A stretch of 63,243 bases of DNA, the filler included, from Reclinomonas americana ATCC 50394 (lineage: Eukaryota), in assembly GCA_048213135.1 (NCBI GenBank). It is 7 parts of 4 records of this genome, joined end to end, with 100 filler letters (N's around TTAATTAATTAA, not from the genome) between each part and the next. Parts side by side here need not be neighbours in the genome. Positions count along the whole stretch, not along the records: positions 43,883 to 52,916 come from PS015619.1; 6 more parts are not named here. One strand, 5' to 3'. The stretch's first letter is position 1, and each line of letters starts with the position of its first letter. Below the pieces are notes generated by a model. The model did no database searches. It was not told where the DNA came from and saw only the letters and a list, made by a program, of their open reading frames with translations. Shown here in pieces: positions 9,758 to 62,106 of the stretch. A program made the position numbers and the translations under genes.

Positions 9758-11308
9758 NCCGCCGGCGAGCTCTTCAGCTCCATTGCGCTCACGGTGACCA
9801 CCTTGGGCACACGTGGCGACACTGGCATCGAGCTCACGGCGGAGAGTGGGAGCGATGGTGGCGTTGACATGAACGCCGATGATGCCGACGACGAGGAGGA
9901 TGGCGGAGGTGTCGGTGGCGACACTGAAATCGCCTGATTCACCACCACGTTCACCCACGAGCAGTCGGGCCACTGTGCGGACGACGGCATGCCTCGGCGC
10001 TACATGGAAGTGGGCATGAAAAAGCAGCCCGGAGAGAGGCGACTGCGACAACACAACGCACCACCATCGTCGCATAGTGATCGGCCAACTTGCACATCTC
10101 AGAACGCATGAGCTGCCCGAGCTGTACGAGGCGGCGCACCTCTATCCCCATCAACTCCTTCTCTTGCGTCACCACGGCGAGCTCAGTAAGCAGACGCTTG
10201 TTTTCGGCTTCGAGCGCCTGTTTGCGCTCCGACAGCGTATCACGCTCACCCAACACGCCCTACGCCGCCACCCACCAGTGAGCGCGACTCACACACACCA
10301 CAATGATCGACAAGCACGAAGCCGACCTGGCGACCGACACGATTCTTATCGCGCAGCGTCCTGATCGTCTCCTCCATCTCCTCCTTCTCGCGTGCAGAGG
10401 CCGACTTGGCCTTCTCCAGCGCAATGCACTTGCGACGCAGAGTTTGGTTCTCCGCCTCCTGCTCCGCGACCTTCTTCTCAAACGCTCGTACCACCTTCTT
10501 GGTCGTACGCTGCTCCCCCTCGTATCGATCCCGTTCACGCTCCAGCACCGATCGCAGCTCCTCGGCCTCCGTCGACACACGCGACAGCGTACTACGCTGT
10601 GCCGTGTACTCGCCACGCAGCTCGCTGAGCTCTTGCTTCAATGTGGTCGCCTGGAGAAGGAATGGTGAGATGAGGAGGAAAAATTGGACATGCACTCGTA
10701 CAACACAGACAGACCTCGCTCGCATAGCGTTGGAGGCTCTGCTTGTACTGCTCCTCGGCCTTGTCGCGCAGCTGCAGCGTCATGTCCCACTCGGCATGCT
10801 CACTGATGGCGGCCTCGCGCAAGTCGCGAGCTTCGCTGGCCTGCTGCGCCAACTGCTCCAGCTCGCCCATGTGTTGTGCCATTTCGTTCATCTGTGACAC
10901 CAGGCGATCGCTGTGAAAGGGAGAGAGAAGGAAGAGTATGTAAGAGAGAGACAAGAGGAGACAAGAGGAGACAAGAGGAGAGAGAGAGAGAAACCGTTCA
11001 GTACGCGCGACCGTCGCGACTCGCTTGGCCTCTGTTGCCTCCCTCAGCAGTCGCTCCACCTCATTCTGTGCACGCTCCTCGTTCTGACGCAGTCGCTGGC
11101 ACTCGTCTCGCGTCCCACGCAGCTCGTGCTCCAAGTACTGGCGACACGCAGCGATGGTGAGGATGTGATGCAGCACACAACACACACAGAGAGAGGGAAA
11201 TGAGCGGGAAGGAGAGACCTTGATGTGGTCCTCGGAGGCTTTGAGACTCTTCTGCAATGGACTGGAGACGTGGTCCAGCAGGCCACCCAGCGCGCCGTGC
11301 GACGCCAT
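9758..11308 (-). CDS. Coiled-coil protein, multi-exon, 3' part runs into the gap
   Basis: ATG 11308 (MASHGALGG). E/K/R/Q heptad-rich exons joined in frame by GT-AG introns. Confidence 0.75.
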
Positions 11309-13015: not shown

Positions 13016-14187
13016 ATGTCTGCGAGCGATAGCAACGCCTCTTCTTCTTCTTCATCGTCGTCGTCTTCAAAGATGCCACACTGGACGATGCCCGAGACCG
13101 CTGACGGTGCGTTTGTCGACACCGGAGTGCTGGTGTGGAACTCGCTGACGCGCACCAAGGTGAGCGAGCTTGGTTGAACGCACACTGAGCCACGATCGGG
13201 ATGACTAACCTTATGCGCACACGCACACAGGTACCACTTCGCAAGCCGAAGGACAGCCCCCTGCGCTGGTACTCGTGCGGACCGACAGTGTACAACATTT
13301 CTCACTTGGGTCATGCACGGTGAGTCGTCGCTGCGTAGTCTCTCTGCGCGATTCGTCTGGCGTCTCCCTCTAACACACACACACACACACAACAGCAACT
13401 ACGTGTCGCTGGACATTCTGCGCCGAGTGCTTGAGGACTACTTTGGCATCCCCACTCTCTACGTGATGAACATTACCGATGTCGACGACAAGATCATCAT
13501 CGCGGCTGCGCACAAGCACCTGGTGGACCTGGTCGCCGACGTGTCCGAGCGGAGTGGCGCGGAATCGATGGCCGTCAGTCAGGCGCTGGAGGACGCACAG
13601 GCGGTGCTGGGCCGAGAGGACGAGTGGCGCCAGGTGTCGAAGACACACTCGGCGGCGCAGGCGCTCAAGCAGGCCGCACTTGCCGCCGGCATCATCAGTG
13701 CGGACGAGGCTGCATCGGAGCCAGACTTCGAGGGCTACGCCCGTCACTACGAGCAAGACTTTCTGGAGGACATGGCCGCCCTGGGAGTTGCGCGAGGCCA
13801 GCTGCATGCAGCAGCACTTGTGTCAGTTGCATTTTCCTCACACAACAGCTTGCTACTACTGTACAGGTGCGACCGGCTCACGCCATGCCGCGCGTCTCGG
13901 AGCACGTACCTGAGATCATCGCCTTCATCGAGCGCATCATCCGCAACGGCTTCGCGTACGCCACCGCCACTGGATCCGTGTACTTTGACACCAGCGCCTA
14001 CCTGGCCTCCGGACACGACCACCCGAAGCTGGCACCGGAGCGCCGCGATGACCTGGAGCTGATGGCCGAGGCTGAGGGTGCTCTCAGCAGCATCGGATCG
14101 GCGGAGAAGAAGGCCACGGCGGACTTTGCCTTGTGGAAGGCATCGAAGCCCGGCGAGCCGTCCTGGAGCTCGCCGTGGGGACGCGGT

Positions 14188-22785: not shown

Positions 22786-22829
22786 NNNNNNNNNNNNNNN
22801 NNNNNNNNNNNNNNNNNNNNNNNNNNNNN

Positions 22830-22841
22830 TTAATTAATTAA
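22830..22841. other. Artificial gap linker TTAATTAATTAA (also at 31510, 37914, 43827, 52961, 62051)
   Basis: Identical 12-mer with stops in all six frames, centred in ~100-nt N blocks. Confidence 0.95.
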
Positions 22842-22885
22842 NNNNNNNNNNNNNNNNNNNNNNNNNNNNNNNNNNNNNNNNNNNN

Positions 22886-43782: not shown

Positions 43783-43941
43783 NNNNNNNNNNNNNNNNNN
43801 NNNNNNNNNNNNNNNNNNNNNNNNNNTTAATTAATTAANNNNNNNNNNNNNNNNNNNNNNNNNNNNNNNNNNNNNNNNNNNNAGTTCTTGTTGTTGTTGC
43901 TCTGCGTGCTCACCCTACGTGTGTGTTCTTGCATTCATGCA

Positions 43942-45051
43942 GTCTCCTTCAACTTGTGGCCGACGAGCATTTGCGCCGACGCGCTCATTTATCCGGCGCA
44001 GGCTGCACCCAACACGCTCCTGGCCGCCCTCCGTGGCTCCGACCCTGAGAATGACACTCTCACCTTTACGCTGACCAACACGGCCAATAGCGGTGAGTTC
44101 ACCATTGTTAACAATGCGCTGCGAGTTGGCGCGCTGCAGCCCGGCAGAACCAAAACTGTGGAGATTCAGGCCGACGACGGCCACGGCAACACATTCCTGC
44201 AGACATTCACTCTGAACGAAGGTACGACGCGCCAGTGTGCGACGAAACGTGGCATCATTGTTCCAATTGTCATTCTTTGTGCGCAGATGCCATTGCACCG
44301 CAAGCAATGGCACTATCGAATGCGGTGGTAGTGTCGCCAGCAGCCGCACATCGAGTGATCGGCAACTTGAGCTTCACCGACAAGACCTCGTTCGAAAACG
44401 GCACCTTTACTCTGGTGGCAGGCGTCGGCGACCGCGACAATGCTTTGTTTGAGCTTGTCGGCCAGAGCAACTCTGTGTTGCGCGTTGCCGCCGCCGGCAT
44501 TGTGATCGACTCGCGGACTCCGCTGCTGATTCGCGTCCGTTTCACCGACTCGCAGGCGCTGACACTCGAGCAAGTGTTTGTGCTCACCGTCAACCACGCG
44601 CCGACGGGCATTGTGCCGAGCCAGCTCACATTCCCGCCTGGCACTACCGCCACCACGCCACTGGCCACTCTCGATGTGGTGGATCAGGACATGCCGAACA
44701 ACGATACTGTCGTGTACACGCTTACCACAGTCGACGAAATGGTCGTCAACAACAACGATGCGTTTGTGATTGACGGAGTCACGCTGCGCGCCCAGATCGA
44801 CTTGGTGAACCCGTCGTACGCGTTTGAGATCACCGTCACCGACGCGGCTGGCAACCAATGGACTCAGCGGTTCACCATGCTGCAACGTTTCGTCGACTCC
44901 TGCTTTGTCGCGCTGTATTATCTCAGACAGTTGCTCACACAATTGCTTGTCGCAGGCATCACCACTGAACCGGTCATGCTTTTCATGGCGCCAAGTGTGC
45001 TCCGCGCCAGACTGGCGCCTGCGACGCTGCCATCTTACACGCTTACCGTGG
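43942..45051 (+). CDS. Cadherin-like repeats (3 full, 1 partial) on the + strand; likely a mis-oriented internal piece of the minus-strand gene
   Basis: GSDPENDTLTFTL, LVAGVGDRDNALF, NHAPT, VTDAAG. Begins at a splice acceptor with no start. Confidence 0.75.
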
Positions 45052-45869
45052 NNNNNNNNNNNNNNNNNNNNNNNNNNNNNNNNNNNNNNNNNNNNNNNNN
45101 NNNNNNNNNNNNNNNNNNNNNNNNNNNNNNNNNNNNNNNNNNNNNNNNNNNNNNNNNNNNNNNNNNNNNNNNNNNNNNNNNNNNNNNNNNNNNNNNNNNN
45201 NNNNNNNNNNNNNNNNNNNNNNNNNNNNNNNNNNNNNNNNNNNNNNNNNNNNNNNNNNNNNNNNNNNNNNNNNNNNNNNNNNNNNNNNNNNNNNNNNNNN
45301 NNNNNNNNNNNNNNNNNNNNNNNNNNNNNNNNNNNNNNNNNNNNNNNNNNNNNNNNNNNNNNNNNNNNNNNNNNNNNNNNNNNNNNNNNNNNNNNNNNNN
45401 NNNNNNNNNNNNNNNNNNNNNNNNNNNNNNNNNNNNNNNNNNNNNNNNNNNNNNNNNNNNNNNNNNNNNNNNNNNNNNNNNNNNNNNNNNNNNNNNNNNN
45501 NNNNNNNNNNNNNNNNNNNNNNNNNNNNNNNNNNNNNNNNNNNNNNNNNNNNNNNNNNNNNNNNNNNNNNNNNNNNNNNNNNNNNNNNNNNNNNNNNNNN
45601 NNNNNNNNNNNNNNNNNNNNNNNNNNNNNNNNNNNNNNNNNNNNNNNNNNNNNNNNNNNNNNNNNNNNNNNNNNNNNNNNNNNNNNNNNNNNNNNNNNNN
45701 NNNNNNNNNNNNNNNNNNNNNNNNNNNNNNNNNNNNNNNNNNNNNNNNNNNNNNNNNNNNNNNNNNNNNNNNNNNNNNNNNNNNNNNNNNNNNNNNNNNN
45801 NNNNNNNNNNNNNNNNNNNNNNNNNNNNNNNNNNNNNNNNNNNNNNNNNNNNNNNNNNNNNNNNNNNNA

Positions 45870-48800
45870 AAGCGTGCCATCCGATGCACGCAAGCACACG
45901 TGGAGTACACGATCCTGCGGCTTGGTGATGGTCAGCTCGCCCACGAACAGTTGGTTGTTGGTCACAGTGAACAAGTTGTTGTTGGTGTCCACATTGCAGC
46001 TGGCCAACGAGTAGGTGATCGCAAAGCCGTTGGGGTCCTGCGCAGAGATCGTGCCGATCAACGTGCCAGGGGCGGCAGGGAGTGGCAGTGGCATCGTTTG
46101 CAGCGCCATGGTTGGCAGCGTTGGCGGCAGGTTGACTATACAGCACGCGAAGACATGAGCACCAAGTGTACCTATCAACAAACTCGCAACCAACGCAACT
46201 TTCTGTGAGAGTCACTGGAGCGGTCGTTGAAACGGTGCCGTCGTTGACCACAAGAGTGAGCGACTTGGTGCCGGCCAGTGACAGGGTGACGCCAGTCTTC
46301 ACAAAGAGCTGATTGAGGTTGCGTACTTCGAACTCCGCAGCTGCAGCGCCAGCGACCGAGTACGCCAGCGTGTTGCCATCCACGTCCATGCTCGAAATGG
46401 TGCCGACAAACGTGAGCGCCGGTGCGCTTGGGAGGTAGGTCAGTGGACCAGACAAGACCGGTGTACGCGGTGCGCTGTTGACTGGCACCACAAATGTTTG
46501 CACCTCCGTGAGGCCGCCGGCGTCTGTGACGCGAAGCCGCACAATAATCTGTCGTGCAGCCGCCTCGCCAGCAATGCCGCCCATGACAACCACCAGCGAC
46601 GAGCCGTCCACGGCAAAGAAGGCATCTCCGGACCCCGGCATGATGGAGTACGATTTCGTGTCGTTCGCATTGTCGTCGACTGAGGACATGTTACCGACGA
46701 CAGTGCCAGGTGCGGCGGGTAGCGCCAACACCGGAGTCGCCAGCGTCAACTGTAGCGCCAGGCCATACGGAGCCTCATTGGCTGCAACAAGAAGATGGAA
46801 AGCGTCAATACGTCTGCAGTCGGCGTAATGGTTAACATATAAACAGCAAAAAGCGAGACGCAACATTGGTTAATGTTAACATCCTGCGTGAATGACAGGC
46901 CGCCAGCGTCGGTGACCGTGATACGCACCGTCAGCGGGCCAGTGAGATTGGGGTCGGCCACAACGAGTCGATCGCCGGGTGCGCCGAGCACGAATCCAGC
47001 ATTGTTTGCCGCTTCGGCAACCAGCGCATACGAGAACTTGTCTGTCAGCGAAGGGTCGGTGGCAGTGAGCACGCCGACCACAGTTCCCGCGGCCGATAGT
47101 GGTCGGTAGAACGATGGCGACAGCGCGATGCCGGTGGGCGCGGCGTTCACTGCACGGTTGCAAACACGTGGAGGTGAGTCACTGTGGTCACGTCAAAAGA
47201 GAGCAGAAAATGACTTGTGCGCTTCACCTGGAATGATGAAGCGCTGCTGCAACGTGGCTCCATTGGCGTCGGCGACTTGAAGCCGCACTGACAGATTCGG
47301 CGCCAGCGGCGGCGCAAGACCGGCTGCACTAACGACAAGCGTGTTGCCGACGACTTGCACCAGACCATTGTCGGTGTCGCCGACGCCGGCAACCAGCGAG
47401 AACGACTGCGTCTCAGGCACGTTGACTGGCGAAGCCAGTGTGTTCGGATCGGTGGCCGCCAGTGTTCCGATCGGCAATCCAGCAGCCTTGGGGATGGTGG
47501 TAATGGGTGACAGCAGCGTCAGCGTCAGTGACGATGGCGGCATGTTGGCTGTTGTGGTGTTGCACAATGAAAAAAATGTGCATCGTGAGCAACTGTGGTG
47601 ACACATGATGTTCGGTGAATGAAAAAGGGACTGCACCTTCGGTAATCGTCAGCGTCTGCACAAACACTGAACCAGCGCGGTCCACAACTTGCACAAAGAC
47701 AATGCGCTCTCCTGTCATGGACGCCTGCGTGACGACCAAGCTCGTCACCGTACCCACCGTCTGCAGCGTAAACATCGCATTCTGGCCCATGCCATTCGGA
47801 AGCGTCAGAGTCCAAGAGTCGTTGAGGTCGACGTCGGCCACCGTGAGGTAACCGACAACAAAGCCAACGTTGACACGCGGGGGGTACAGGTTGGACGAAA
47901 TGGAGACACCAGTGGGAGACGTGTTGACTGCGCATGTGTGTGTGCGTGAGTCGCAGCAGTCACAGATACTCTAGATCTCGGTGATTTTTCTCGTGCTCAC
48001 CTGGAATGCTGAAGCCGTCTTCCACAAACGCACCGGCTTGGTCAGTGGCACGGATGCGCACACGCAGCGGGGAGTACCACGCGCCGGTGATGCCGGTCAT
48101 TCCGTTGCCGACGCGAAGCTCGTTGCCGACAATCACGAAGAGGCCGTTGTTGTCGCTGCTGGCGCCCGAGCGCAGACTGAATGTGATGGATTCCGAGGCG
48201 TTGGCATCGGCAGCACTCAGAATGCCCACAACTACATTGGGCACGGCAGGAAGCGCAAGTGGGGCAGAGGTGCCGCGATTCAGGGCGACGCTTGACGGGG
48301 CCACATTGGCTGCCGACGAGAGGTGTGAGTGCGAGTGGCGGCGACACGGTGGTGCATCATGTCAACGCATACCTTGATTCAACGTCAGCACCGTGCGTGT
48401 GACGTTGCCGGAACCGTCGGTGGCCGACAGCTCCAGAGTCTTGGAGGTAGCTGGCGCCAGTTGCAGAACATTTCCGGAAACAATGAGCACGTTGCCAGCC
48501 GCCACAGTAAACTCCACGGCACTGGGGCCTCCGCTCACTGCCAGCGTGATGGGGACACCGTCATCGTCAACGTCGGAAGTTGTGAGGATACCAATCACAG
48601 TGCCAGGCGTGGCATTCGGTGGATATGTGCCGGCAGAGAGCGCGATGGGTCTCGGAGGGCTCGACACTGGTGGTCGTCGGTGAGGATTCTGTCGTCACAC
48701 ACAAACAAAACAAGAACTGTCCACTTACCAGGAATAGTAAACGACTGTTGCGATGCGAGAGCTCCATCGCTGACGGTGATGGTGACGGTGGCGTAGGTGT

Positions 48801-51800
48801 GGAGCGCCTCGGCAGCAAGGCCCATGCCACCCACACGTACTTCATTGCCATTGACAATGGACAAGAAGGGCGCGCCGGTGCCGGCCGTGATGGTGTAGGT
48901 CAACGTGGAGGCGGCGTTGGCGTCGGTAGCAGACAGTGTGCCAACCACTATCACACAGTGCACGCGTGAGTGACGACGACGCGTTGAGCAGGAGAAAGAC
49001 GGGGGACGAAACAATGGTTGACAGCCGCAGGCAGAAGCAGCACGGGCGCGGAGAGTGTGAGCGACGGGTCAGACGGTGCGACATTTGCTGCAAGAGAGCA
49101 CAACAAATGAGGCATACGCACGACACTGACACTCGCGAACGCACGCACCTTCCACCACTGTGAGTGAGAACTGAGTCAGTGTGGCACCTCGCGAGTCGAC
49201 CACGTTGACTTGTACAGTTTGAGATCCAGCAATGGAGACATTGTTAATCTCGAGGCGTGCCGGAGCAGTGATGCGGAAATTGTTGTTGCTCGCAACACCG
49301 GCAGGCAGCGTAAAAGTCCACGCATCCACAATGTCGGCGTCCACTGCCGTCAGCGTGCCAACCAAGGTACCCACGGCTGCTCCTGGAACATACTTGTTTG
49401 ACGAGAGCGTCACAGCCGTGGGAAGTGCGTTGACTGATCGGAAACACACAGATGCACGAGGTCAGTTGATGGAAATGACAGTGGCGGTCACCNNNNNNNN
49501 NNNNNNNNNNNNCCGAACGGCGTCGCCGCCATACCAATCGTCAGTGAGTTACCCATCACCGCAAAGGCGTTGCTGACTGACTGCGCCACGATCGAGAACA
49601 CGTGTCCCTGTGCCGTGTCGTCCACTGCCGACAGAGTGGCCACAACACTGCCGGCCCCAGCTGTCGGCGAGTACTGTGTCGTCGACAGCGCCACTTGTGA
49701 CGGCGCATTGTCGACTGCGGGGGAGCACGAAGCAAGCAAGACATGAGCACAGACACCGACAAAGGCACAGCAAATGCCAAGAATCAACGCACTTGCAATA
49801 GTCAACACCGCCTGCAGTGTCAAGTTGGCCGAGTCGCGCACTTGCACCCGCACGCTCAGTGGCGTAGCGAGACCAGTTGGCACACCGACAGCGCCGACTT
49901 GCAGCTGATTACCGCTGATCACAAACAGACTGTTGTGTGTCGCACCCACGCCGTTCACCAGCGTGAATGTCGCCGTGTCGCCCGCGTTGGCGTCGGTGGC
50001 GGCGAGCACTCCAACAGTTACGCCGGGCGCCAGCCCACCAGTGGGAATCAGAATTGGTGTGGCTTGCGGCGTCAGAGTCACCAGAGTGGGTGCCACAGGA
50101 ACTGTGTGCGTAGTCACACAAGAGTGAGCAATCACGAGTGGATCGGTATGCAGATGTAGATACAGAGAGTGAAGCTACAAACCCTCCGACAACGAGAACT
50201 GCTGTTGCAGATTGTTGTTGGCCGAATCGACCACATTGACCACCACTTGCACCGTGCCAGAGATCGGTGCGCTCAGCACCAAGTTGCGACCGGCAATCGA
50301 GAAACTGCCGTTTGCCTGCGGAGATATCGGTCAAAGAAATGTTTGCACAACGAACTCATCTCATTTCTCGCAGACAGCGACTCACCATTTGACCCGCTGG
50401 CAGACTGAATGTGGCCGTGTCCAACGGATCGGGATCGGTCACCGTCAGGTACCCGATCACGGTTCCCGCGACCGATGCCGGCACATACGTAGCTGTCGAC
50501 AACGTCAATGCCGTGGGTGCACCGTTGACTGCAGAGAGAATACAAGAGGAATCAGTCACTTTGCACGTGCATTGCATGCGATAAATACAAGAGTGTTCAC
50601 GCATGCGTACCAGGAATCACAAACGCCTCCTCCACCGAAAGTCCGGACGAGTCCGTGGCGCGGATGCGCACACGCAGCGGATTCGACTGCGGCGCTGTGA
50701 TCGTGACAGTGGCCGAGGTGCGCAGCTGNNNNNNNNNNNNNNNNNNNNTGCACCAACAATGGCGAACAGACCGTTGTTGGTGCTGCCGTTGCCGGCCACC
50801 AGCGCGTAGCTGGCAATGGTGCCACCAGAGCCGGCCGAATTCGGATCAATGGCCAACAGGTTGGCCACAGGAGTGCCCGTCGACGCCGGCAGTGAGAGCA
50901 CCGGCGACACCAGTGTGGCAGTCAACAGTGTCGGTGGCAGAGCAACTGCGAAAAAAAAAGCGAATCAGCGACTGCTTCTTTCATCACCAGCTACCAAACA
51001 GGTGCGCAACTCTCCGTCAACGTGAACGTATTGTCGATAAAGAGGGTCGGTCGAGTGGCATCCGTCGCACGCACAGTGACGGTGACGGAACCGAACGGCG
51101 TCGCCGCCATACCAATCGTCAGTGAGTTACCCATCACCGCAAAGGCGTTGCTGACTGACTGCGCCACGATCGAGAACACGTGTCCCTGTGCCGTGTCGTC
51201 CACTGCCGACAGAGTGGCCACAACACTGCCGGCCCCAGCTGTCGGCGAGTACTGTGTTGTCGACAGCGCCACTTGTGACGGCGCATTGTCGACTGCGGAA
51301 CGCATGGAGCATAGCGTGAGCATGTGCGTTGAGTCAACAACGCGCACATACGCCACACATACTCAACTGGCGAGAGTGAGCACGGTCTCGAAGCTCAAGT
51401 TGGTGGAATCACGAACTTGCACACGAACAGTAAGCGGAGTCGCCAGTCCAGTCGGCAGACCGCCGGCAGAGACCTGCAACTGATTGGCTGCGATCGAGAA
51501 TCGGCTGTTATGCGTGGCGCCGACACCGTTGACCAGACTGAATGTAAATGTCTCGGCTGAATTGGGATCGGCAGCCGTGAGCTGGCCAGCTACGGTGCCT
51601 GGTGCGAGTCCGCCAGTGGGAATGAGCAATGGTGCAGCTTGTGGCGTCAACGTAATGCCCGTTGGCGGCACGGCGGCTGTGTAATTTTGTTGACAGGTGG
51701 TGGTGAGCAAGGAGGAGGAAAACGAATGTTGCGTACACAACAACAACAACACACCTTCGACAATGATAAACGTCTGTTGCAGAGTGTTTCCGGCAAAGTC

Positions 51801-52916
51801 GACCACATTGACCAGGATCTGATTGTTGCCAGTGACGGCGGCCGCATTCAAGAGCAGGTTGCGTCCAGCGATGGAGAAACTTGCATTGCTCTGTCACCCC
51901 CAAGCCAAACGCAGTGAGCGCACACAGCAAAGCACACCAAGAAGACCGAGGGGTCTCAGAACAAACCAGTTGTCCGTTCGGCAGTGAAATCGTCGCGGTG
52001 TCGAGAATGTCGGGGTCAGCAATCGTAAAATAGCCGACAACGGTACCGACAGCCGACCCGGGAACATATATGTTGGAAGACAATGTGATGCCAGTTGGGG
52101 AGGCATTGACTGCAGGACGACAGTCAGTGGACTGGTGCATGAGTGAGAGAGATGTGCACACAAGTTGATGTCCTCACCGAGAATGGTGAACGACTGCTCC
52201 AAGAACAGATTGGTCTGATCCCGCACCCGCACTCGAACACTCTTGGGCGACGTCTGCGCCGAGGCGGATATGCCGGCAGCGGCGACCACCAGAGAATTTG
52301 GCGCCGAAATGCTAAACAAGCCATTGTCACTGTCGCCAACACCAGTCACCAACGTGTAAGTGAACGAATTGCCTGCGGCATTGGGGTCAGTTGCCGACAG
52401 TGTGCCAACTGGCGTTGCCGCCACCGCCGGCAAGTGCAACACCGCGTTCGTCAGAGTCAGCGTCAGCAACGTCGGTGCCACATCAACTGCACAACATATG
52501 AGCGCGTGAGGGTCGCCGACATGCACACCCAAACAGCCAGATACTCAACTCTCGGTCAGCACCACGGTCTGATCCACAAAGAGCGAGGGTCTGCCGCTGT
52601 CGCGTGCGCGAATGGTAATGGTAACCGTTCCGTGCGGTGGCACTGTCCCGATGACCAAGGTGGCGCCCGCAATGGCAAACGCATTCGCCGACGAAGAGCC
52701 AACAACGCTCACGGTGTACGAGGCTGGTGTTGTGTCGTCTTGTACAGTGTACGTTGCGACAACGGCTCCGGCAGCGGCAGTCGGGGAGTAACTGGTCGTG
52801 GATACCACGACAGCCGACGGCGCGTTGTCGACTGTGCGAAAAAAGTTCAGTACGTGTGCGCTGTCGAATGATAAGGAAAGTACAGTCACAGGTAGTTAGT
52901 TGTGCGCAACTTGGAA
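45870..52916 (-). CDS. Giant cadherin-like repeat protein (about 19 repeats in this segment); 5' truncated
   Basis: Repeated NxAP / GTxVGxLxAxDxN / FxLVxGxGxxxNxLFxIxxNxL / VRVxVxDxxG motifs, with phase-1 introns at repeat borders. Confidence 0.85.
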
Positions 52917-53089
52917 NNNNNNNNNNNNNNNNNNNNNNNNNNNNNNNNNNNNNNNNNNNNTTAATTAATTAANNNNNNNNNNNNNNNNNNNNNNNNNNNN
53001 NNNNNNNNNNNNNNNNCACTCTCTCTCTCTGTGTATTTCGACGGTTTGATCACACTCAATCATCATCATTCTTCTCTTCACACACACAG

Positions 53090-53761
53090 GGCACCAAGCA
53101 GTTCTCATTGCACAAGCTGGCCAAGGCCACCCTCGGCAGCGGTGACTTGCGAGCGGCTGTGGTGCTTCCACCCGGAGAGGAACTGAATGAGTGGTTGGCA
53201 GTCAACAGTTGAGCTCACAATTCGTCAATCCTCGCAAAGAACACTCTCCTTGCTCTCCTGTGCTCATTCCTCCTCTCTCCATCTGTTCCGTATTGGCGCA
53301 GCCATTGACTTTTACAACACGACCAACTTGTTGTACGGAAGCATCACTGAGTTTTGCGATGAGACCACGTGCCCGACGATGAATGCCGGTCCCAAGGTGC
53401 AGTTCACTCAGCAGCGTGTGTGGGGGGTGTTTTTTCCCTCCCCCCTCACGGTTGTTGTTTTGCAGTACGAGTACTTGTGGGCGGATGGCGACAAGGTGAA
53501 GAAGCCGGTAAAGGTGTCGGCACCGGAGTATGTCGAGCTGCTGATGCAATGGATTGGCGACACGGTGTCACAAGAAACCATCTTCCCCTCCAAGCCAGGT
53601 GAGCACACGTGCACTCACGAGCAGAGAGAGAGAGAGCAGGGAGCAGCTGTTCGTCATCATCCATACTCTCGATGCAAGTGACTGACTCTCTGTGGGCAGA
53701 TCAACCATTCCCACGCGACTTCTTGTCGATCGTCAAGAAGATCTTTAAGAGACTCTTCCGT
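53090..53761 (+). CDS. MOB1: MOB kinase activator (MOB1-like), partial
   Basis: [34 protein letters not shown]...[17 protein letters not shown]...SAPEYV...IFKRLFR. Confidence 0.93.
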
Positions 53762-59269: not shown

Positions 59270-61234
59270 ATGAGCCACGGCACTCCAAGGGGAGGCTCAG
59301 TGGCCATCAACAGCCCGTACACTGCGGGCAACTCGACGGCATTCCGCTCAGGGTCCACAGACGACATGCTGCGCATGGACGACGCCGGCAAGATCAACGA
59401 CAGTCTCACCCCTGTCGACGGTGACGATGAGAAGCTGGGCTTGCTGGTGCACGGGGAGCGTGACAGACGACCAGCGGAAAGCTCGTTGCGTGTTGGAGGG
59501 AGAGAGGGAGAGAGAGAAAGAATGTGTGCGTGTGTGTGTGTGACTGATGATGCGTGCTCGAGCAGATGGGCAATCGCACTCTTCAACTTTATCAAGTCGT
59601 TCATCGCCTCGGGCATTCTCGCCATGCCGTTCGCCTTCAAGCAGTCTGGCACACTGGTGAGTGGCGTGATGCACTGTCTGTCTCGTGCGTGTGTGTGTGT
59701 GCGTGTGTTGACACTCTCTCCCTCTCGCAGTTGGGCGTGATTCTGATGGTTGTGTGCACCGTCGGCGCCGGCTACTGCATGTTCCTGCTCATTGAGATCA
59801 CCAAGACGAAACCTATGGGAGTCATCAATGAGTACGCTCTTGTTGGCAAGCTGGCTTTTGGAGAGCTTGGCGTGCAAATGGTGACTGCGGAAGAACCAGC
59901 CAGAGCTGTAGGGAAGAGGCACTCACTCGGCCTTTTTGCAGATTGACGCGTTTCTGGTGCTGACTCAAGTCGGCTTTTGCTGCGCGTACATGATCTTCCT
60001 CGGCACCATCCTGTCGTCGCTCATTCCCGCCCTCAACCACTACGAGTGGATTCTGATTGCGTTGCCGGTGGTGATTCCGCTCAACTTTTTGCGCGATGTC
60101 CACAAGCTGGCGCCGTTCTCCATGGTTGCTCTCTGCTGCGCCATGGTGGCCATTGTTGTCGTGTCTGGTGAGTGTGTGTGTGTGTGTGTGTGTGTGCTGT
60201 GAACGAGAGCGTGTGCCATGTACTAACGGAGCGACAGTGTTTGCCGGCGAGCACATCACGTCGCTGCCGGCCGGCTGGGCCAAGACGCGCTCGTTGGCCA
60301 CTTGGAATTTCCCGGTGGCCATCGGCACCTTTGTGTACGCTGTCGAGGGCATTGGCCTGGTCATTCCCATCTACAACACGCTGCGCAACAAGGATCGCTA
60401 CCCGTCGATCATCATTGTCGGCATGGTGGTCATGTCGCTGCTCACCACTGGCTTTGGTTTCTTCGGGTACCTGGCGTACGGCGATCAAGACACCAAAGAC
60501 AACATCATCGACAGCATTCCCAGCCATAGTATCTTCACCAGTTGCGTGCGTACGGTGCATTTTCTTGCAAGATGAGCTGCGAACCAATTTACACTTGTGT
60601 GTGTGCGTGCACAGAAATCATCAAATACATTCTCTGCGTCGTGATGCTGTTCACGTGCGTGTGTCGTGTGGTTGCCAGTGTGTGTGTGTGTGCGCGCAGT
60701 CATGTGCGCTAACAGCATTGCCCTTCTTCACAGGTACCCCATGCAGATGAACCCGGTGCTGGATCTGACGGAGCGCCGTATCTTCCGCAAGTATCCGTGC
60801 GTATCTCAGTGCTCTCGTCTCTCTGTGTAATCGCGCTGGCGATCTTACCCTCTCGTTCTGCCCTGCAAGTGTGTTGGATCGACCAACGTGGTGGGTGAAT
60901 GCGTGGCGTGCGCTGCTCGTGGTGACCACGGCGCTGGTGGCCATGGGCATCCCGCATTTCGGCGACTTCATCTCGGTGATTGGCTCGGCCGGCAGCACCA
61001 TGCTCGCGTTCACTTTCCCCGCCCTCTTCCACTGGAAGGTGCTGCGCAATACGCTTTCGCTACGACAGGTATGTGTGTGCTTGTGCATTTGTGTTTACGA
61101 CGCTTGCTGATCCCCCCACCTGCCGGCTGCGACAGAAAATCATCGATTGGACTTTCGTGATTGTCGGCAGCATTTTGTGTGTCGTCTGCACCACGTTCTC
61201 GGTGTGGAACCTCGTCAAGGTTATGACATCGTAG
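59270..61234 (+). CDS. Amino acid transporter (Aa_trans, SLC36/38-like)
   Basis: FNFIKSFIASGILAMPFAF, QVGFCCAYMIF, VYAVEGIGLVIPI, GFFGYLAYG, FTYPMQ, AFTFPA. Multiple TM segments. Confidence 0.93.
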
Positions 61235-61446: not shown

Positions 61447-62006
61447 TCACGCCTCGACACCGACATCTTGCGGTGCATCGGCGGCCACTCCCAGCAACTC
61501 GGGCGACGCTGCTCCTGCGCCCTCCGACTCGTCATGTACAACAAAGTTGACCACTCCGTCGCTGGCCAGACGGAGTCGCTCAATGTGGTCGAGAACGCCA
61601 ACAGGAGGCAAGTTTCCTGCACGTCGTCGCCAGTAAGCAAAAAGCAACAAACAAGGGAAACAGAAGCAGCAACGCAACTCAGCGCGTACAACGAGCGCAG
61701 CGTGGGACACGACCGCGAGTATGCAACTCGCGCCAATGCCAGCGTGTGCATCCTGGCGCCACACACTGCCGCCACTCGCAGAGTGAGTACATGAGACACG
61801 CACGCGAGCGTCAATCATGTTGTACGCAACTCGAGGCCGCAAACTTGCGCAGTGAGCGGTTCTGAGCAACGCCCTCGGCGATTCTCACAATGTGCCTATT
61901 GAACGAGTTCTCTGTAGCAGCCAAATGACGTGAGCGGTACAATGGAGGAGAGATGTGAGGCGGGTTGCGACGCAGGACGCAACTCGAAATCGACATTTCT
62001 TCCAGG
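61447..62006 (-). CDS. RNI-like leucine-rich repeat protein, 3' exons only
   Basis: LEEMSIS-K-NSF...IAEGVAQNRSLRKFAAS-M-CG...LRSLYAL-R-N. Three introns at the same repeat position. Confidence 0.6.
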
Positions 62007-62106
62007 NNNNNNNNNNNNNNNNNNNNNNNNNNNNNNNNNNNNNNNNNNNNTTAATTAATTAANNNNNNNNNNNNNNNNNNNNNNNNNNNNNNNNNNNNNN
62101 NNNNNN

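Follow-up and report, generated by a model that had tools for sequence, protein, structure and literature searches.

Two kinds of GT-AG donor in a stretch of the Reclinomonas americana genome are linked to the last base of the exon, and one may be read by U1 out of register

In human cells, the 5' end of the small nuclear RNA (snRNA) U1 can pair with 5' splice sites outside its usual register, and both shifted and bulged registers have been proved there (PMC4856993; reviewed in PMC9311317). The register shifted by one base (+1) was described at atypical human 5' splice sites by Roca and Krainer in 2009, as related by Tan et al. (2016; PMC4856993), and the validated non-canonical registers are estimated to serve 1.5% of human sites (PMC4856993). 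Until now, recognition out of register has been an oddity known from a small proportion of human sites, shown minigene by minigene. Here we analyse 63,243 bases of the genome of Reclinomonas americana ATCC 50394 (the window), in which 161 introns were predicted and sorted by regular expression into 27 with a shifted (out-of-register) donor, GTT[GAT][ACT]G, 100 with a canonical donor, GT[AGT]NG, and 34 others. The link between the donor class and the last base of the upstream exon is real and was confirmed in several ways. There are two kinds of GT-AG donor here, and we give about one chance in two to the reading that the second is recognised by the U1 5' end one base out of register.

The shifted donors have in common with human shifted sites (PMC4856993) cleavage at GU, a putative helix one base downstream, a conserved G at +6 and a very weak canonical register; the model oligonucleotide in Table 2 of that paper also has an exon-end A, as shifted donors do here. 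Human shifted sites, as described there, are rare and pair at length with U1 bases 1-6 through an AAGUAU-type tail, whereas here such a tail is found in 2 of 27 donors, most donors are GTTGCG[T/C], a C standing in the place of the A that would pair, and 27 of 161 predicted introns belong to the class. The bulge (+2/+3) register (Roca et al. 2012; counts in Table 3 of Tan et al. 2016) matches the present donors in having GUU ahead of the normal +3 to +6 letters and in gaining as many base pairs over the canonical register, but it predicts that exon-end G is favoured, whereas G is nearly absent here, and that table lists 68 predicted human cases among 201,541 sites. The compensation between exon-end G and +5G in human introns (PMC8283771) is a mutual dependence of exon-end and intron positions, as here. 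Both guanines are missing from 6 of 1,990 introns (0.3%) in the human sample of Artemyeva-Isman and Porter (2021; PMC8283771) and from at least 25 of 161 predicted introns here, the latter because the second G has moved to +6. The tunicate Fritillaria (PMC13326754) is likewise a lineage with a large share of non-consensus donors, in which altered snRNAs are reported and for which the possibility of a shifted U1 register has been raised; it has lost GT in most introns, whereas here GT-AG is kept and register and consensus alone differ. U12-type introns also form a second, discrete donor class of high information that needs no exon-end G. Their donor and branch-site consensus is unrelated to GTTGCG. 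Among open-access articles on shifted, bulged and non-canonical registers we found human, yeast, worm and tunicate work and no genome rich in GUUGCG donors, and searching by the letters of the motif returned primers and unrelated RNAs only. The mechanism itself is not new; what appears to be new is how often it would be used (about 17% of predicted introns), the near-single consensus and the clean exon-end rule.

The window is a chain of seven contigs separated by N44-TTAATTAATTAA-N44 spacers (at 22786-22885, 31466-31565, 37870-37969, 43783-43882, 52917-53016 and 62007-62106), with other N gaps besides; linkage of genes across spacers is not implied. It is intron-rich, with a G+C content of about 58% and introns of about 75 nucleotides (nt). 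Introns were predicted window-wide by a gene finder that combined a 3-periodic second-order Markov model of coding sequence with introns of 40-400 nt and with masking of strand conflicts. Its donor score was taken from positions +3 to +7 alone, as the better of a four-column core placed at +3 or at +4 with equal weight and with the skipped base unweighted, and its donor choice was thus blind to exon bases. A finder using codon usage only was dropped as too weak, genes being split or merged, and self-trained rounds, which over-split long open reading frames (ORFs), were kept solely as a robustness check (the second parse). The parser missed the introns at 44222 and 44887, chose wrong acceptors at 13848 and 60715 and is blind to in-frame introns (for example in MOB1); such errors add noise and do not create the exon-end pattern.

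One contig (43883-52916) was curated by hand. It encodes a repeat protein on the plus strand as far as a gap at 45052; past that point, the minus strand (45869-52916) likewise encodes a repeat protein. The repeat unit of about 100 residues is essentially one exon, and four domains form a super-repeat in which the border types LTE/I, IP/V, VE/A and T[LI]A/I (the slash marking the intron) recur in order. For the minus-strand gene, all GT..YAG pairs that lie in frame between adjacent exons and span 45-130 nt were listed; the donors at 44222, 44887 and 52910 were examined separately. The curated introns are the following.

44222-44286, plus strand: intron, canonical donor GTACGACG after exon-end G; phase 1; 65 nt; junction FTLNE-D-AIAPQA
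44887-44955, plus strand: intron, shifted donor GTTTCGTCG (GTTTCG) after exon-end C; phase 1; 69 nt; junction FTMLQ-R-ITTEPV
52832-52910, minus strand: intron, shifted donor GTTGCGCAC after exon-end A; phase 1; 79 nt; junction ..P-I-DNAPSA, which fits a repeat border; upstream exon cut by the contig end
52487-52549, minus strand: intron, shifted donor GTTGAGTAT after exon-end A; phase 1; sole GT..YAG candidate; junction TVVLTE-I-DVAPTL
52110-52177, minus strand: intron, canonical donor GTGAGGAC after exon-end G; phase 1
51891-51966, minus strand: intra-domain intron, donor GTTTGTTC after exon-end G, with T at +3 but G at +5 and so in canonical register; phase 0; sole candidate
51677-51754, minus strand: intron, canonical donor GTGTGTTG after exon-end G; phase 1
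51293-51367, minus strand: intron, shifted donor GTTGAGTAT after exon-end A; phase 1; junction TVLTLA-I-DNAPSQ; shifted-register energy -7.7 kcal/mol
50946-51010, minus strand: intron, shifted donor GTTGCGCAC after exon-end A; phase 1; junction TFTLTE-I-ALPPTL
50529-50610, minus strand: intron, canonical donor GTACGCAT after exon-end G; phase 1
50316-50385, minus strand: intra-domain intron, canonical donor GTGAGTCG after exon-end G; phase 0
50102-50182, minus strand: intron, donor GTTTGTAG after exon-end G, with T at +3 and G at +5, in canonical register; phase 1
49715-49792, minus strand: intron, the exception, canonical donor GTGCGTTG after exon-end A; phase 1; junction AVLTIA-I-DNAPSQ
49088-49148, minus strand: intron, canonical donor GTGCGTGC after exon-end G
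48948-49012, minus strand: intra-domain intron, shifted donor GTTTCGTC (GTTTCG) after exon-end T
48667-48728, minus strand: intron, canonical donor GTAAGTGG after exon-end G
48310-48372, minus strand: intron, canonical donor GTATGCGT after exon-end G
47928-48000, minus strand: intron, canonical donor GTGAGCAC after exon-end G
47549-47636, minus strand: intron, donor GTGCAGTC after exon-end G
47150-47227, minus strand: intron, donor GTGAAGCG after exon-end G
46782-46864, minus strand: intron, shifted donor GTTGCGTCT (GTTGCG) after exon-end T; phase 1; junction DVNINQ-S-NEAPYG
46136-46199, minus strand: intron, shifted donor GTTGCGTTG (GTTGCG) after exon-end A; phase 1; junction PVTLTE-I-NLPPTL

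These 22 introns comprise 13 after an exon-end G and nine after A, T or C. All 13 donors following G were classed in the canonical register, with the conserved G at +5 (GTGAGG, GTGTGT, GTACGC, GTGAGT, GTGCGT, GTAAGT, GTATGC, GTGAGC, GTGCAG, GTGAAG, GTACGA and two GTTTGT). After the other bases, eight of nine donors carry the extra T and a G at +6: GTTGCG at 52910, 51010, 46864 and 46199, GTTGAG at 52549 and 51367, and GTTTCG at 49012 and 44887. The lone exception is A/GTGCGT at 49792. A G at +6 of this kind was thus found after 0 of 13 G-ending and 8 of 9 non-G-ending exons (Fisher p=2.8e-5). The initial annotation had described the same division, with the same exception, and every donor that it named lies in the sequence as described. 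Because exon-end bases are partly inherited by paralogy within the four-domain super-repeat, the 22 sites are not fully independent.

The association extends well beyond this gene. Among all predicted introns, exon-end G precedes 2 of the 27 shifted donors and 55 of the 100 canonical ones (p=5.5e-6); the difference holds for introns that the ORF requires (1/18 versus 39/65, p=2.9e-5), outside the repeat-gene contig (2/20 versus 46/89, p=8e-4) and in the second parse (2/34 versus 62/103, p=7e-9), and shifted donors are present in all seven contig pieces. The 27 shifted donors follow A 14 times, T six, C five and G twice, compared with 15 A, 4 T, 4 C and 2 G among 25 donors in the earlier tally. 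Two G/GTTTGT donors, probably counted there as shifted with G, are in canonical register with T at +3. The contingency proposed at that time, between the -1 base and a T at +3, is present window-wide (exon-end G at 8/37 donors with +3T and 63/124 of the rest, p=0.002), but +3T itself is not the discriminator: within the +3T donors, exon-end G is found in 6 of 10 with G at +5 and 2 of 27 with G at +6 (p=0.002), so that it is the position of the conserved G that separates the classes. As a share of shifted and canonical donors together, shifted donors account for 0.52 after A, 0.28 after C, 0.24 after T and 0.04 after G. Codon-position composition would give the 27 shifted donors exon ends of A5.0, C8.0, G8.8 and T5.2; A is therefore enriched (14 observed, p=9e-5) and G depleted (2 observed, p=0.0035). 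The final codon of the exon had been thought to be freed from splicing constraint by the shift; it is instead constrained anew, with G avoided and A favoured. The 55 copies of GTTGCG that do not serve as donors are preceded by T 18, C 13, G 13 and A 11 times, and A is less frequent there than at shifted donors (p=0.005).

Homology fixes the exact junction of three shifted donors outside the repeat gene, and all three follow A. These introns, and a fourth that does not discriminate, are as follows.

13787-13866, plus strand: intron of the cysteinyl-tRNA synthetase (CysRS) gene, donor GTTGCGCGA after exon-end A; phase 0; junction set by homology
53208-53301, plus strand: intron of the MOB1 gene, donor GTTGAGCTC after exon-end A; phase 1; junction set by homology
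60541-60614, plus strand: intron of the amino-acid transporter gene, donor GTTGCGTGC after exon-end A; phase 1; homology
32224-32297, plus strand: intron of the kinesin-14 gene, donor GTTGCGTCT after exon-end C; phase 2; lengths fit KIFC3, non-discriminating

In MOB1, the first exon runs as far as residue 21 of chain 4jiz_A and the second picks up at residue 23, which leaves one residue for the split codon A/CC; we take this residue to be Thr. With the acceptor at 13866, the GT model of CysRS reads ALG/VRPAH and aligns without gaps to 38 of 38 homologues (LG-V-x-P-P), whereas a GC donor three bases downstream would add a residue that is seen in 0 of 38; against solved structures the CysRS junction was not residue-exact. 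For the transporter, the GC alternative leads to an in-frame stop, and the GT model leaves nine residues between two conserved anchors that are separated by eight or nine in 38 of 43 homologues. The kinesin-14 junction adjoins a variable loop, and both models fit. GC-AG introns, considered as a candidate, do not fit the CysRS and transporter results.

The repeat gene provides a control of another kind. All 16 domain-border introns are in phase 1 and lie at one shared position of the repeat (h-x-h-x-[EPQAL], then the split codon for V/I/A/S, then x-x-x-P), which bears out its earlier use as an internal control. A GC donor three bases downstream would make shifted borders one residue too long; with GT, the repeat register holds at six domain borders. 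Cleavage at a GU one base upstream of the proposed U1 register fits the MOB1, CysRS and transporter introns and these six borders. Donors vary at equivalent borders: from one copy of the super-repeat to the next, GTTGAGTAT gives way to GTTGCGCAC at type-A borders and to GTGCGTTG at type-D borders, and intron sequences have diverged among the copies. The initial annotation took the shift to offer a route to sliding of introns by one nucleotide, but none was seen, the 16 paralogous border introns keeping phase 1 in both classes; class switches have left the junction in place and need a one-base change in intron length plus a change of the exon end.

The shifted donors are nearly uniform. The 27 comprise GTTGCGT (15), GTTGCGC (6), GTTGCGA (1), GTTGAG (3), GTTACG (1) and GTTTCG (1), with G at +4 in 25 and C at +5 in 24. 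The commonest canonical donors are GTGAGT (24), GTGCGT (15) and GTGTGT (14), and their +4 position is uninformative (A35 C31 T32 G2 of 100). The shifted class is thus no shifted copy of the canonical spectrum (C at +5 in 24/27 shifted versus C at +4 in 31/100 canonical donors, p=7e-8). The self-trained rounds, in which the inserted base was never trained, put a T there in 28 of 50 to 35 of 48 calls of the out-of-register kind. The hexamer GTTGCG is not enriched in the window (77 copies, 70 expected), but GTTGCGT occurs 36 times against 17.5 +/- 4.8 in shuffles, 0 of 100 of which reach 36, and the excess is close to the number of donors with that heptamer (15). Canonical donors have G at +3 in 75 of 100 cases, and GTAAGT, the usual optimum, is rare (the curated donor at 48728 is the sole one seen, with two GTAAGC besides). 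Two GTTGCG-type introns (46185-46199 and 38829-38854, minus strand) contain a further GTTGCG a few bases in, and extra GTTGC copies average 0.26 per shifted and 0.16 per canonical intron.

In other respects the introns with shifted donors are ordinary. Their mean length is 76 nt (range 50-132), compared with 74 nt for canonical introns, a CAG acceptor ends 23 of 27 against 95 of 100, and a branch-like CT[CGA]A[CT] motif is equally frequent in both. Pairing of donors with the rest of their own intron revealed no class difference and no extra self-complementarity. U12-type introns were set aside in view of the GTTGCG donor, the CAG acceptor and the lack of a special branch motif. Introner-like mobile introns were also rejected: read by eye, the 27 shifted introns have nothing in common beyond about +8, and they vary in length. 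Acceptors are unusually strict window-wide, with CAG in 149 of 161 predicted introns and TAG in nine, preceded mostly by G or A.

Donors that lack both guanines in the canonical register (at least 25 of 161) must be recognised differently. The common kind of donor is GT[G/A]NG[T/C], usually after an exon-end G; the second, about one predicted intron in six, has one extra T and G at +6, nearly always as GTTGCG[T/C] and rarely as GTTGAGT, GTTACG or GTTTCG, after an exon-end A, less often T or C and almost never G. In the reading that we favour, U1 at this second kind would sit one base downstream: the exon-end A would occupy the -2 slot (U10 of U1), intron G+1 the slot of the exonic G-1 (C9), U+3 the slot of U+2 (A7) and G+6 the slot of G+5 (C4), U+2 would be a tolerated mismatch (C8), and cleavage would still fall before GU. 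The exon end would then set the register. A G at -1 would let the canonical register win through an extra G-C pair, A would make the two registers roughly equal, and C or T would render the canonical one mildly better; the order of the shifted shares, A, C, T, G, fits this predicted competition. We infer U1 as the reader, the standard form of its 5' end and the register itself from these patterns.

Three registers were scored against the 11-nt U1 5' end AUACUUACCUG printed in PMC4856993, which assumes a standard U1 in place of this organism's own. On average, the 27 shifted donors form 6.85 base pairs in the shifted register, 4.11 in the canonical one and 6.59 in the bulged one, and the shifted register beats the canonical one in 26 of 27, by about 2.7 pairs; canonical donors form 7.59 pairs in their own register. 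The shifted-register energy of GTTGAG sites ranges from -4.9 to -7.7 kcal/mol, and that of the GTTGAGTAT sites, favourable in this register only, is -6.0 and -7.7 kcal/mol. The earlier idea that G+1 takes the role of the exonic G thus fits the base pairs and the excess of A, but the gain in energy is thin.

Several results weigh against reading by a shifted U1. The mean nearest-neighbour energy of the 27 donors is -1.22 kcal/mol in the shifted, -0.24 in the canonical and -0.76 in the bulged register, compared with -5.7 for canonical donors, and most GTTGCG donors score 0 in all three registers alike. Shifted and bulged registers are nearly tied on base pairs, the former better in 12 donors, equal in 8 and worse in 7. 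The near-single heptamer GTTGCG[TC] is itself a difficulty, as C at +5 (24/27) mismatches U1 position 5, where A would pair, and a plain shift of the canonical spectrum predicts GTTGAGT as the commonest form, whereas there are three GTTGAG donors. Canonical donors show no richness in A at -2 (17 of the 55 that have G at -1), and the excess of A at -1 of shifted donors exceeds a pure positional shift, although that fit is not rejected (chi-square p=0.10). G at -1 could wobble-pair with U10, and its near-absence needs an added argument from competition. Finally, most junctions are predictions and some are wrong; the shifted call at 59485 probably joins two genes and is likely to be a false donor.

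One rival keeps U1 in its normal register (G+1 with C8, U with A7) and bulges one U of +2/+3, so that +4 onward pairs as +3 onward usually would. Its base-pair count is almost that of the shifted register, equal or better in 15 of 27 donors, and it is among the registers listed for human sites (PMC4856993, Table 3); its energies are no better than those of the shifted register, however, and it keeps the exon end facing C9, so that G should be favoured as it is at canonical donors, and gives no role to the excess of A. The shifted register instead puts the exon end at U10, where A is favoured. From the observed exon ends (A 14 versus 5.0, G 2 versus 8.8) and the order of shares we prefer the shifted register, at roughly even odds overall, and regard a bulge as unlikely. 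Somewhat less unlikely, though still doubtful, is a dedicated reader, either a protein factor or a variant U1 complementary to the GUUGCG[U/C] heptamer and the preceding A. It would account for a motif that is near-invariant at positions (+4 G, +5 C) whose canonical counterparts hold little or no information, for standard-U1 energies near zero and for the twofold enrichment of GTTGCGT, and variant U1 snRNAs exist in humans (PMC3561869). In its snRNA form, which we consider a shade more doubtful still, two donor codes would stand side by side, the variant U1 would pair G+1 with the base usually found opposite the exon end, and a second snRNA, not a flexible standard U1, would have left the rule on exon ends (A yes, G no) as its footprint. 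On the other side, the U1 5' end is among the most conserved of RNA sequences, the introns are unremarkable as regards length, CAG acceptor and branch-like motif, and Rfam found no snRNA in the window (no family at gathering score; at E up to 1, three sub-threshold matches at chance level). Two GTTGAGTAT donors, moreover, extend the shifted pairing to the first three bases of standard U1, which suggests that a standard U1 is present and counts against a wholly different one. The sites are either carried by proteins or read by an RNA that departs from the textbook U1 where it faces +2, +4 and +5.

Two further explanations were weighed. If shifted donors simply needed no exon end, the -1 base could drift to its coding preference, and indeed all four bases occur there and the split codon at repeat borders varies (Ile, Ser, Leu, Arg); we think this improbable in view of the enrichment of A and depletion of G relative to codon-position composition. 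Still more improbable, to the point of being discounted here, is that the class is an artefact, whether of GC-AG donors three bases downstream (GTT/GCG), gene-model errors, paralogy within one repeat gene or chance. Each GTTGCG does offer an in-phase GC three bases on, the junctions are mostly predicted, sites in the repeat gene are related by duplication, the hexamer is a common one and at least one shifted call (59485) is probably false. Yet GTTGAG and GTTTCG offer no GC, the repeat borders are in register with GT only, the GC alternatives fail in CysRS and the transporter, and the association was obtained with a donor choice blind to exon bases and holds outside the repeat gene and in two parses. 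False calls, moreover, would add G at -1, since 13 of the 55 non-donor GTTGCG copies are preceded by G.

If perhaps 15% of the donors in a genome are of this kind, the genome is a natural experiment on how intron starts are found, with a simple rule on the last exon base and with paralogous introns that share a codon position yet fall in either class. The unexplained need for C at +5 raises the question of the U1 genes of this organism. There is also a practical consequence: as shifted donors have neither exon-end G nor +5G, donor models spanning -3 to +6 would score them as hopeless, and genes would be mis-annotated.

Pfam, run on 105 predicted exons of the window to name genes, identified a DNA primase small subunit, a WD40/U-box protein, cysteine dioxygenase, CysRS, kinesin-14, a family-2 glycosyltransferase, MOB1, a GNT-I family glycosyltransferase, an amino-acid transporter and a dual-specificity phosphatase. 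The repeat gene had been labelled a cadherin, a label that is not established: PF00028 scores 13.1-18.9 bits against a cut-off of 28.8 in three of eight repeat exons scanned at E up to 1, and at E 0.001 it matches no repeat-gene exon among the 105. Big_9 is borderline on repeat exons (22.2-23.6 bits against 23.6), and as far as the evidence goes the protein could be called at most a "Cadherin-like Ig-type repeat". The best CysRS relatives are only about 50% identical, the named ones including diatoms and brown algae, so that nothing closely related to the organism is present in the collection searched. The transporter exon gave no matches in a word-indexed protein search, and its homologues were found by a HMMER library search. 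A 994-residue WD40 ORF gave 88 pattern matches among metagenome contigs, none confirmed as a relative.

Some minor features of the window deserve mention. Repeat exons at about 49515-49715 and 51093-51293 (minus strand) encode the same 60-odd residues, whereas the introns upstream of them are wholly different and belong to different donor classes (GTGCGT at 49792, GTTGAGTAT at 51367); matching exons with unlike introns point to a recent duplication, exon-only gene conversion or an assembly artefact. Twice (13848 and 60715, plus strand) the parser took an upstream AG that gives six-residue insertions in alignments with homologues unless a CAG 18 bases on is used (13866 and 60733). At 61447-62006 the exon predictions of the two strands overlap: GTTGCG donors are called at 61830 and 61678 for the minus strand, GTAAGC/GTGAGT donors for the plus strand, and one of the models must be wrong. 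Other odd donors are GTGTTGT at 10706, 16456, 42203 and 30988 and GTGG.G. at 30882, 53964, 33076, 12651 and 32517; these could reflect other registers, with an extra G at +3 or an offset of two bases, or else sites called wrongly. In the second exon of MOB1 (about 53400-53462, plus strand), 21 in-frame codons have no counterpart in the alignment to human MOB1A, whose two matched stretches abut, and these codons are probably a stop-free intron with a length divisible by three.

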